Made by a program: the position numbers and the translations under genes | Virus record (IMG/VR): IMGVR_UViG_2531839195_000014 | Source: a virus | Lineage: Duplodnaviria > Heunggongvirae > Uroviricota > Caudoviricetes | DNA length: 7,330 nt | Reading direction: 5' to 3' (one strand) | Shown: piece after piece, positions 3,896-7,330 of the stretch | Position numbering within the stretch: the first letter of the stretch is position 1 | Layout: each line of letters begins with the position of its first letter | The notes under the pieces: generated by a model | The model's input: only the letters and a program-made list of their open reading frames with translations | Databases searched by the model: none | What the model was told of the DNA's origin: nothing

Positions 3896-3964
3896 TGTTT
3901 TTAACCTCAACTCAGATTAAAATTACTGCGAGTGATGAATAAATGTCCCAGGTTCTTCACTCAG

Positions 3965-4194: not shown

Positions 4195-4237
4195 TGAGGT
4201 GTACTGGCAATAGCGGACACTACCATTTGTTCTTTTT

Positions 4238-5055
4238 TTAAGCAGCCATCTGATGATATTTTTCCCTGAAGGCTGCCGGGGAGATATTCCCCAGACGAGA
4301 GTGACGACGCTGACGATTGTAGAAAATCTCAATGTATTCCCGTATTACTGAGATGGCTTCATCCCGGTTATTAAAACGATAGTGGCTCAGGCTCTCATTT
4401 TTCAGCGTTCCCCAGAAGCTTTCCATCGGAGCGTTGTCGTAACAGTTACCTTTACGCGACATTGATGTTTTCAGACCAGACTGCTCCTGTATGACCCGGT
4501 AATCGTATGCGCAGTACTGTGAACCTCGATCAGAGTGGTGGATTAGCCCGGCAGGTGGGCGCTGGCTCCTGAGCGCCTTAAACAGGGCTTTACCTGTCAG
4601 CTCTTTTGTCATGCGCTCTCCCATGGCGTAGCCGACAATTTCGCACGTATAAACATCTTTGATGCCAGCGAGGTACAACCATCCCTCCTGTGTGGCAACA
4701 TACGTCAGGTCCGCCACCCAGACCTGATTTGGTGCTGTAGGAGCGAACGTCTGGTTCAGCAGATTTGGCGCAACTGGCAGATTGTGGTTCGGGTTCGTAG
4801 TCGCTCTGAACTTGCGTTTCTGCTTACAGCGTAGCCTCAGCTCCTTACGAAGACGTGCCAGTCGGTCACGACCAACGATGATGCCATTCTCTGCCAGCTC
4901 CGTCTGGAGCCGCCGGGTTCCATATGTTTCGCGAGTGCGGATATGTGCCACCTTAATCTCCAGTTTTAGCCGCTCATCACTTGTTTTCTGTCTGAGGGTT
5001 CATGCTGTACCCAGTTGTAATAACCGCTCCTGGATACACCAAATACCTGACACAT
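4238..5055 (-). pseudogene. IS600-like orfB, copy 2, frameshifted by a 1-bp deletion
   Basis: Copy 2 has TT at 4981-4982 where copies 1 and 3 have TTT (sense strand AAA to AA). Sense reading becomes ...RKQVMSG-stop shortly after the orfB start; the downstream catalytic region (4238-4951) is intact but out of frame. Confidence 0.8.
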
Positions 5056-5104
5056 CGCTTCAATGGGAAATTGTTGTCGCCATTGTTCGATTAACGCGTA
5101 TTTT

Positions 5105-5392
5105 TCAGCGACTCCTGTGCAAAATACGCTGTTGCTTTTTTAATATATCGCGCTCAAGGCGAGCTTCATTTAACGCCTTACGCAGTTGCAGAATTTCAGA
5201 TTCCAGTTCAGCCACCGTGCGGGAACCAGGAGTACCGAGCCCTTTTCTGGCGGCGGTAACCCATTGTCCTAAAGTGCCTTCAGGAAGGGATAATCGGGAA
5301 GCGCCTTCACTGATCGAAAGTTGATTTTCAAGAACCGTTCTGACAGCTTCGGCTTTGAACTCTTTAGAGTAACGTTGGGTTTTTCTGCTCAT
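5105..5392 (-). CDS. IS600-like OrfA, copy 2 (95 aa)
   Basis: Identical to copy 1 OrfA except L60V (…GSRTVAELE…). Confidence 0.85.
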   Translation of the reverse strand: MSRKTQRYSKEFKAEAVRTVLENQLSISEGASRLSLPEGTLGQWVTAARKGLGTPGSRTVAELESEILQLRKALNEARLERDILKKQQRILHRSR

Positions 5393-5456
5393 TATTAGCT
5401 CCTTCTGATGCCATTCTATTTCAGGAAGGAGTGTCCGTTAAACTCAGGCTACCTCA

Positions 5457-6228
5457 ATTCCCCAGACGAGAGTGACGACGCTGACGATTGTAGAAAATCT
5501 CAATGTATTCCCGTATTACTGAGATGGCTTCATCCCGGTTATTAAAACGATAGTGGCTCAGGCTCTCATTTTTCAGCGTTCCCCAGAAGCTTTCCATCGG
5601 AGCGTTGTCGTAACAGTTACCTTTACGCGACATTGATGTTTTCAGACCAGACTGCTCCTGTATGACCCGGTAATCGTATGCGCAGTACTGTGAACCTCGA
5701 TCAGAGTGGTGGATTAGCCCGGCAGGTGGGCGCTGGCTCCTGAGCGCCATAAACAGGGCTTTACCTGTCAGCTCTTTTGTCATGCGCTCTCCCATGGCGT
5801 AGCCGACAATTTCGCACGTATAAACATCTTTGATGCCAGCGAGGTACAACCATCCCTCCTGTGTGGCAACATACGTCAGGTCCGCCACCCAGACCTGATT
5901 TGGTGCTGTAGGAGCGAACGTCTGGTTCAGCAGATTTGGCGCAACTGGCAGATTGTGTGTTCGGGTTCGTAGTCGCTCTGAACTTGCGTTTCTGCTTACA
6001 GCGTAGCCTCAGCTCCTTACGAAGACGTGCCAGTCGGTCACGACCAACGATGATGCCATTCTCTGCCAGCTCCGTCTGGAGCCGCCGGGTTCCATATGTT
6101 TCGCGAGTGCGGATATGTGCCACCTTAATCTCCAGTTTTAACCGCTCATCACTTTGTTTTCTGTCTGAGGGTTCATGCTGTACCCAGTTGTAATAACCGC
6201 TCCTGGATACACCAAATACCTGACACAT
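5457..6228 (-). pseudogene. IS600-like orfB, copy 3, 1-bp insertion frameshift and 3' truncation
   Basis: Extra T at 5958 (GATTGTGTGTTCGGG versus GATTGTGGTTCGGG in copy 2) shifts the frame after ...RATTNPN. The 3' end is cut at 5457, and the listed ORF 5454-5888 terminates in copy 2 IRL sequence. Confidence 0.8.
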
Positions 6229-6277
6229 CGCTTCAATGGGAAATTGTTGTCGCCATTGTTCGATTAACGCGTATTTT

Positions 6278-6565
6278 TCAGCGACTCCTGTGCAAAATAC
6301 GCTGTTGCTTTTTTAATATATCGCGCTCAAGGCGAGCTTCATTTAACGCCTTACGCAGTTGCAGAATTTCAGATTCCAGTTCAGCCACCGTGCGGGAACC
6401 AGGAGTACCGAGCCCTTTTCTGGCGGCGGTAACCCATTGTCCTAAAGTGCCTTCAGGAAGGGATAATCGGGAAGCGCCTTCACTGATCGAAAGTTGATTT
6501 TCAAGAACCGTTCTGACAGCTTCGGCTTTGAACTCTTTAGAGTAACGTTGGGTTTTTCTGCTCAT
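6278..6565 (-). CDS. IS600-like OrfA, copy 3 (95 aa)
   Basis: Protein identical to copy 2 OrfA. Confidence 0.85.
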   Translation of the reverse strand: MSRKTQRYSKEFKAEAVRTVLENQLSISEGASRLSLPEGTLGQWVTAARKGLGTPGSRTVAELESEILQLRKALNEARLERDILKKQQRILHRSR

Positions 6566-6869
6566 TATTAGCTCCTTCTGATGCCATTTTATTTCAGGAA
6601 GGAGTGTCCGTTAAACTCAGGCTACCTCACATGTCTCTGGCGCAATGCCCGGGCTTTTTATTCGCACATCGTGAGGAATGCACCGTGGAAATTAAAAAAT
6701 CATTAATCCCCGTTATACCGAAAGTGGCGCAGTAGACTGTGACGTTTTTTTTGACGACAGGGACCAGGCAGTCCCCTACACAGCCACCGCTGATGATGTC
6801 GCACCGACGGGTCAGCGAATCTGGCAGGAACTGCAAAGTGGCAAATGGGGTGAGATAGCCCCATTCACT

Positions 6870-7247
6870 GTGACACCAGAAATGCTGGAAGCGGCCAGAG
6901 AGGCCAGACGTCAGGAAATTGAAGCATGGCGCACAGAACAGGAGGCGAAGCCGTTCACGTTTGAATGGAACGGTCGTATCTGGAATGCTGGCCCCAACTC
7001 ACTGGGCCGCCTTTATCCGGTGGTAATGGCTGCGAAATCCGACATTGTACGGGACGTGATGACGTGGGGTGATGCCGATAATCAGCAGGTGAAACTGTCG
7101 ATGCCGGAACTGGAAGAACTGGCGGCAGCAATGGTGCAGGCGCAGGTCGATCGCAACGATGAGATTTATCGCCGTCAGCGTGAAATGAAAGAGGAGCTGA
7201 GCGGTCTGGATGATTTGGCTTCAATTCGGGCGTTTGACGTTGAGTAA
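6870..7247 (+). CDS. phage tail-associated DUF4376-like protein (tail-fibre-assembly-like region); 5' end disrupted or uncertain
   Basis: Product …EMLEAAREARRQEIEAWRTEQEA…MTWGDADNQQVKLSMPELEELAAAMVQAQVDRNDEIYRRQREMKEELSGLDDLASIRAFDVE resembles, from memory, the DUF4376 family found beside prophage tail-fibre genes. The frame is open upstream to 6696 with coding-like sequence but no start codon or RBS before GTG 6870 / ATG 6882. The stop overlaps the next start (TAATG). Confidence 0.45.
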   Translation: MTPEMLEAAREARRQEIEAWRTEQEAKPFTFEWNGRIWNAGPNSLGRLYPVVMAAKSDIVRDVMTWGDADNQQVKLSMPELEELAAAMVQAQVDRNDEIYRRQREMKEELSGLDDLASIRAFDVE

Positions 7248-7330
7248 TGAATAAGCCGCAACTGGCGGAATCACAGAAGACCGCTTTGCTTACCGAAGCG
7301 GAGTCTGTCATCCGGCCGCCGGGGCGTGCT
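7247..7330 (+). CDS. hypothetical protein, N-terminal 28 codons, partial (continues beyond the window)
   Basis: ATG 7247 overlaps the upstream stop codon (TAATG), suggesting translational coupling; reads MNKPQLAESQKTALLTEAESVIRPPGRA to the window edge. Not in the ORF track because of the window end. Confidence 0.3.
   Translation, partial: MNKPQLAESQKTALLTEAESVIRPPGRA

Follow-up and report, generated by a model that had tools for sequence, protein, structure and literature searches.

We found that the frame break in a DUF4376 gene near the 3′ end of a 7,330-nucleotide stretch of viral DNA (IMG/VR virus record IMGVR_UViG_2531839195_000014; the whole stretch is called the window hereafter) is very probably not a real feature, and that the gene is a member of a known family. 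The window is a draft contig of Shigella flexneri (GCA_000268025.1, AKMZ01000023.1), and the source names attached to the open reading frames (ORFs) are the S. flexneri strains K-404, K-227 and 4343-70. With high confidence, we attribute the break to a sequencing or assembly artefact, in which one base was dropped from a run of seven A residues (A7; other homopolymers are named likewise) spanning codons 4-6. We directly observe A7 in the reference sequences, shortened homopolymers throughout the contig, a remnant of a tail-fibre gene just upstream and a conserved start position among the homologues.

The frame break and the shortened homopolymers of the contig

At the beginning of the gene, the window reads GTG GAA ATT AAA AAA TCA, with an A6 run at 6694-6699. 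The frame of the ORF at 6870-7247 is open upstream as far as the AAA at 6696, immediately before which lies a TAA (6693-6695), and it contains no ATG, GTG or TTG between 6696 and the GTG at 6870; a different frame begins with the ATG at 6631 and runs for 34 codons to a stop at 6733-6735. An earlier note, made from the letters of the window, had described both of these frames, placing the ATG beside the end of an insertion sequence (IS), and the sequence agrees with it, one base (6630) intervening between the IS and the ATG. It had also proposed that one extra A at 6694-6699 would yield a DUF4376 ORF of about 205 codons. Insertion of that base indeed joins the two frames into a 205-aa protein, which is known letter for letter from 597 contigs (with contigs of more than 1 Mb in 91 index blocks), and an exact 187-aa form, which starts at GTG 6685, is annotated on 151 contigs. 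The exact 125-aa product of 6870-7247 is recorded for seven draft contigs only, the window record included. From GTG 6685, the uncorrected window translates to MEIKKSLIPVIPKVAQ followed by a stop.

The A7 reading is found across independent sequences. Nine complete S. flexneri chromosomes (including CP001383.1, CP020339.1 and CP026788.1) share the IS600 junction of the window exactly and, beyond it, have A7, T8 and an uninterrupted frame; A7/T8 is likewise present in seven independent short contigs from other assemblies that carry the identical allele. In comparison with three complete genomes, the A run is the sole difference across 6630-7330. The complete genome of S. flexneri 2002017 features a 214-aa form of the protein, the first nine residues of which (MSVKLRLPH) derive from the IS600 end and the junction. 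A 181-aa product starting with MNPRY was considered as a sign of A6 in later assemblies and rejected, as the contigs concerned start within the gene and carry A7.

When homopolymer lengths were compared over the whole window with the complete chromosome CP020339.1, the window lacked one base at 0 of 28 five-base runs, 1 of 4 six-base runs, 5 of 9 seven-base runs and 1 of 2 eight-base runs; that is, 7 of the 15 runs of at least six bases are shortened and none is lengthened. Among the shortened runs is the IS600 tract A7G, a T7 on the opposite strand, which is one base short in all three copies of the element (2349-2354, 5136-5141 and 6309-6314); the others comprise three runs outside the IS copies, at 858-864 (T7 as T6), 1689-1695 (A8 as A7) and 3898-3902 (T6 as T5). 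ORFs across shortened runs (e.g., in the Rha/Ash gene region and at the start of the exonuclease VIII fragment) may be distorted. Comparison of the three IS600 copies of the window with one another yields few indels, some of them outside long runs, and is informative only against finished genomes.

Sister drafts from the same batch as the window record (assembly accessions GCA_0002134xx-GCA_0002817xx) vary at the same kind of site. Among the seven near-identical drafts with the 125-aa ORF, A6/A7 and T7/T8 occur in all four combinations, and two of the drafts, AFGY01000005.1 and AFGX01000005.1, have a derived substitution in common and yet are unlike at both the A and the T runs. Other runs are shortened at differing places in each sister draft (6 of 19, 6 of 18, 4 of 10, 3 of 4 and 2 of 3 runs), and four complete genomes agree with CP020339.1 at 41 of 41 long runs. 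The homopolymer differences are thus length-dependent, restricted to deletions and phylogenetically incongruent among closely related assemblies of one batch, and hence bear the signature of flow-based sequencing error. These assemblies are presumably 454-based, and the sequencing platform would then be the cause of the shortened runs. The homopolymer error of flow-based methods (pyrosequencing and ion semiconductor sequencing) has been described in general terms (PMC5822529); flow-based undercalls are likewise single-base deletions in runs of at least six bases, without insertions, and scattered differently among sister assemblies.

Some points weigh against an undercall. The T8 run 50 nt downstream of the A run is correct in the window, which implies that undercalling is stochastic rather than universal. 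A few shortened homopolymers are also present elsewhere in some 'complete' references, although none is at the A7 site, and true decay of the DUF4376 gene does exist in the lineage, in the form of a CAG-to-TAG change at the equivalent of 6765 in two sister drafts. That a mutable A7 tract really lost a base in this one strain is formally conceivable but improbable. Such a deletion would make the gene a genuine frameshift pseudogene, its translation from GTG 6685 being MEIKKSLIPVIPKVAQ. This would fit the A6 that the record reads, the natural proneness of homopolymers to slippage, the loss of the client fibre gene (whereby inactivation would be neutral) and the real nonsense substitution in the same gene of sister strains. 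However, independent sequences of this allele and lineage do not repeat the break, with A7 in every complete genome and later assembly; the indel is not isolated but one of seven alike in a contig with no lengthened run, among them the required A7G of IS600 in three copies; and near-identical sister drafts mix the A and T lengths freely. We accordingly settle the alternative left by the earlier note, a frameshift pseudogene or a homopolymer miscall, strongly in favor of the miscall on the strength of A7 in the references and of the shortened runs across the contig and its sister drafts, the pseudogene being unsupported for this allele and lineage.

We give hardly any credence to the A tract as a functional switch, whether as a contingency site subject to phase variation or as a place where slippage during transcription or translation restores the frame from A6. 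Its location at codons 4-6 is a typical on/off position, its length differs among drafts, and an A8 occupies the corresponding place in Escherichia coli SE11; but slippage is unneeded because A7 is in frame in all references, the length variation is limited to one draft batch and parallels that of unrelated homopolymers, and the run is interrupted in the cq9 homologue (AAAAGAG) with its ORF unaffected. An A6 run is also short for efficient slippage. Programmed frameshifting and phase variation were both rejected, as A7 gives a continuous ORF in all references and the four complete genomes agree at 41 runs. Very improbable, too, is a variant in which A6 is real and the A7 tract is a mutable on/off site of an orphan chaperone gene kept intact beside ipaH; if true, the persistence of the gene long after its client fibre gene fell to IS600 would be a hint of selection on a retained or co-opted function.

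An undercalled A7 has consequences beyond this gene, as apparent frameshift pseudogenes at homopolymers of 6-8 bases in such drafts should not count as gene decay. This is relevant to Shigella, where pseudogene counts serve arguments for reductive evolution. In IS600, an IS3-family element, the A7G tract is the programmed -1 frameshift site needed for the OrfAB transposase; since this tract is one base short in the contig, the transposase ORFs look broken, and the same artefact mimics the loss of the frameshift site in all three IS600 copies.

Four S. flexneri chromosomes recorded as complete (CP182555.1, CP049606.1, CP182546.1 and CP178302.1) have 2-5 shortened homopolymers relative to CP020339.1 in a 16-kb region, with A7 and T8 of the DUF4376 gene unaffected; these are probably errors of a long-read-only consensus. 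In AFGY01000005.1 and AFGX01000005.1, the change at the equivalent of 6765 is a C-to-T substitution that converts CAG (Gln27 counted from GTG 6685) to TAG. Homopolymer error is an unlikely source of a substitution, and so the gene may really be a pseudogene in the sub-lineage of these two drafts, which also display phage capsid genes in place of the exonuclease VIII fragment upstream of IS600.

Features at the 3′ end of the window (positions are those of the window)
Feature	Position	Strand	Remarks
Partial IS600 ('copy 3')	5457..6629	-	Left terminal repeat ends at 6629 (...GGCTACCTCA); delimited by inverted/direct repeats and three-copy alignment
3′ remnant of prophage side tail-fibre gene	6630..6674	+	Last 14 codons, HVSGAMPGLFIRTS; TGA at 6672-6674
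ATG, start of the 205-aa form in many Shigella annotations	6631..6633	+	Overlaps the fibre remnant; probably not ancestral
GAGG, Shine-Dalgarno-like motif	6673..6676	+	8 nt 5′ of GTG 6685; overlaps the fibre stop codon
DUF4376, predicted tail-fibre chaperone homologue	6685..7247	+	187 codons with the A restored (MEIKKIINPRY...AFDVE, stop)
A6 run	6694..6699	+	A7 in all references; apparent -1 frameshift at codons 4-6 (ATT AAA AAA ATC)
T8 run	6745..6752	+	Correct in the window; T7 in four sister drafts
125-aa ORF from GTG	6870..7247	+	Mechanical listing; covers just the C-terminal two thirds of the gene
Start of 59-codon ORF	7247..7330	+	Overlaps the stop of DUF4376 (TAATG); cut off by the contig end; counterpart in L023 at 8618-8797

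The start codon and the remnant of the fibre gene

The DNA just upstream of the gene belongs to a different coding sequence. In ten E. coli genomes of the enteroinvasive type, the equivalent of 6630-7330 is 95-98% identical to the window and one base longer, the additional base falling in the A run (A7 by alignment). A gene for a 470-aa product, annotated as 'prophage tail fiber N-terminal domain' (Pfam phage_tail_N), extends into this region there; in the enteroinvasive E. coli (EIEC) strain RMDEC364, it ends with AHVSGAMPGLFIRTS and a stop over the equivalent of 6630-6674, read in the third frame. An intact EIEC fibre gene is located at NZ_CM177020.1 1740212-1741624. A tblastn search with the 470-aa fibre recovered residues 456-470 and no other part of it in the window. 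The C-terminal motif of the fibre, GLFIR or SLFVR, is kept in divergent fibre genes (GLFIRTS, GLFIRVY, SLFVRVA and SLFVRAT). Because 6630-6674 is the 3′ end of the fibre gene in uninterrupted relatives, IS600 lies inside that gene, 45 nt before its stop. The idea of the earlier note that the IS had replaced the promoter of the DUF4376 gene is thereby superseded: IS600 cut the tail-fibre gene upstream, the rest of which is absent from the window. A crude promoter scan of 6450-7330 had a single hit, the promoter of IS600 on the - strand. It gave no + strand sigma-70-like site from the IS end up to the gene and thus lends no support to an outward promoter borne by the IS.

The native start of the DUF4376 gene is likely GTG 6685, judging from the alignment of the window with EIEC RMDEC364, SE11, cq9 and ETEC4090, and we expect this codon to be used in vivo. 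The homologues of SE11, cq9 and ETEC4090 (about 75-80% identical, 187-188 aa) have an ATG start aligned exactly to GTG 6685, and their frames are closed by stops 2-14 codons upstream; the GAGG motif is invariant across all five sequences. In a survey of the 120 best cluster representatives of DUF4376 homologues, 77 start 8-9 residues ahead of a conserved PRY motif, and an N-terminal extension is restricted to those from Shigella/EIEC. Alignments with the phage homologues phiP27 L57, Rac-SA53 and P-Eib ORF-191 also begin at residue 1 of MEIKK. The earlier note had named a homologue start at 6870 or 6882 as the finding that would make the upstream frame irrelevant; the homologues compared do not start there.

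In Shigella and EIEC, models of the Prokaryotic Genome Annotation Pipeline (PGAP) are 205-207 aa long and take as their start the counterpart of ATG 6631 or, in uninterrupted loci, an ATG two codons before it, overlapping the fibre gene by 50 nt. That the gene of this clade truly starts there, with an 18-20-residue extension over the fibre 3′ end, is in our view unlikely but still worth weighing, as the frame is open, the 205/207-aa annotation recurs in many Shigella and EIEC genomes, and the otherwise conserved ATG has changed to GTG in just this clade. Against it stand the lack of the extension in homologues outside the Shigella/EIEC clade, among the matches listed; the conservation of the overlapped DNA in the fibre frame (GLFIR motif); the conserved GAGG placed 8 nt 5′ of GTG 6685; and the outcome of the promoter scan, with no + strand hit between IS600 and the gene. 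ATG 6631, from which the earlier note had begun the gene, is hence unlikely to be the ancestral start, since 6630-6674 codes for the fibre C-terminus and homologues outside Shigella/EIEC start at the position of 6685. The 205/207-aa models of Shigella/EIEC probably begin 18-20 residues too early, inside the fibre gene.

IS600 copies and the decayed prophage locus

The element was named IS600 via the RefSeq annotation of copies 99.5% identical to it. In the window, the partial copy at 5457-6629 is an extra one, head-to-tail with copy 2 (4195-5458). Just one IS600 separates the exonuclease VIII fragment from the DUF4376 gene in the nine complete S. flexneri chromosomes and in the sister drafts; the tandem partial copy is doubtful given that finished genomes have one IS600 at the site. 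It probably arose by misassembly at the repeats, although a duplication private to the strain is possible.

The gene order in the complete genomes is a Rha/Ash regulator, IS600, the exonuclease VIII fragment, IS600, DUF4376, a 59-aa Tfa-like fragment and ipaH, the last of which is convergent and encodes a 608-aa product with LRR_TTSS and NEL domains; chromosomal genes lie beyond. An effector 'moron' downstream of the tail-fibre module is the usual arrangement. The 59-aa gene is called in complete genomes, where it ends back to back with ipaH. Its product resembles the middle part of Caudo_TAP below threshold (17.5 bits, with a cut-off of 22.1 bits), and the gene is probably what remains of a tail-fibre assembly gene where recombination joined the ipaH cargo.

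We propose that insertion of IS600 truncated the side tail-fibre gene of a lambdoid prophage remnant and left behind the DUF4376 chaperone gene and the ipaH cargo gene. The real locus of this S. flexneri lineage, from 5′ to 3′, would begin with the left end of IS600 and the final 45 nt of the IS-cut side tail-fibre gene, followed by an intact 187-codon DUF4376 gene from GTG 6685, positioned 8 nt past the GAGG that overlaps the fibre stop, then the short Tfa-like fragment and the convergent ipaH effector gene. The A7 at codons 4-6 would have been undercalled as A6 in the draft contig, giving rise to the apparent frame break. With its fibre gene gone in S. flexneri, the intact DUF4376 ORF is an orphan in a decayed prophage.

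Comparison with known fibre chaperones

The assignment of the gene to DUF4376 (PF14301), made in the earlier note, holds: the Pfam match is real, with 60.1 bits against a cut-off of 25 bits (E 3.4e-16; residues 66-171 of a 183-aa frame), and PHROG 1141 is matched along its full length (3.3e-88). In EIEC, SE11, cq9, ETEC4090 and phage phiP27, the neighbour upstream is a gene annotated as 'prophage tail fiber N-terminal domain', whose 3′ end abuts the gene or overlaps with it. In the intact loci examined, the gene always stands right after the tail-fibre gene, with stop and start codons that overlap or abut, as the last tail gene before the cargo or the prophage end. The location downstream of a fibre gene that typifies the DUF4376 family is thus seen here as well, with only the last 45 nt of the fibre gene left in the window. 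From homology and gene position, we predict that the DUF4376 protein is an intermolecular chaperone that aids the folding and trimerization of the fibre encoded upstream. Two points call for caution: the role is drawn from distant family members, and the protein has no sequence or fold match to TfaMu or Caudo_TAP. Specifically, there was no match to Caudo_TAP (PF02413) at E <= 0.1 and no sequence match in the PDB, and the gene is therefore filed as DUF4376 rather than as a lambda- or Mu-type Tfa.

The lambda Tfa and Mu U/TfaMu proteins (Caudo_TAP) occupy the same genomic slot and have the same presumed role as intermolecular fibre chaperones, and a likeness of DUF4376 to the TfaMu C-terminus has been stated (PMC7882524); the protein of the window differs from them in being without a Caudo_TAP match. 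Precedents are also found within PF14301. In Alteromonas phage V22, gp27 is needed for a functional fibre (PMC7289586, PMC10579305), and in Campylobacter CJIE1 a DUF4376 protein is experimentally required as a fibre chaperone (PMC7882524). V22 gp27, A5 gp9 and the product of the gene downstream of the CJIE1 H-fibre have a C-terminal DUF4376 domain and a length of about 190 aa in common, and their genes, like that of the window, lie directly 3′ of a tail-fibre gene with translational coupling. The window gene is distant from these chaperones, being related at the level of the Pfam domain only; unlike theirs, the gene of the window lineage is orphaned, its client fibre gene having been removed by IS600.

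Further relatives are the orthologues of E. coli prophages and phages (phiP27 L57, Rac-SA53 'tail4', P-Eib ORF-191 and the RefSeq 'DUF4376 domain-containing protein' of E. coli SE11, enterotoxigenic E. coli (ETEC) and EIEC), which are 40-98% identical over the full length from residue 1, begin with M(E/Q)IK(K/E)I and are also encoded by the last tail gene before the cargo ('moron') or the prophage end. L57 (NC_003356.1, 41678-42244) is the last tail gene of the Stx2e phage phiP27, and ORF-191 of the P-Eib phages (AF151674-6, AF151091) is just upstream of the eib immunoglobulin-binding genes; both share the chaperone-then-cargo layout seen here with ipaH. In contrast to these orthologues, the window copy is short of one A in the record and has a GTG rather than an ATG start, and it is followed by ipaH, whereas eib or attR follows the orthologues.
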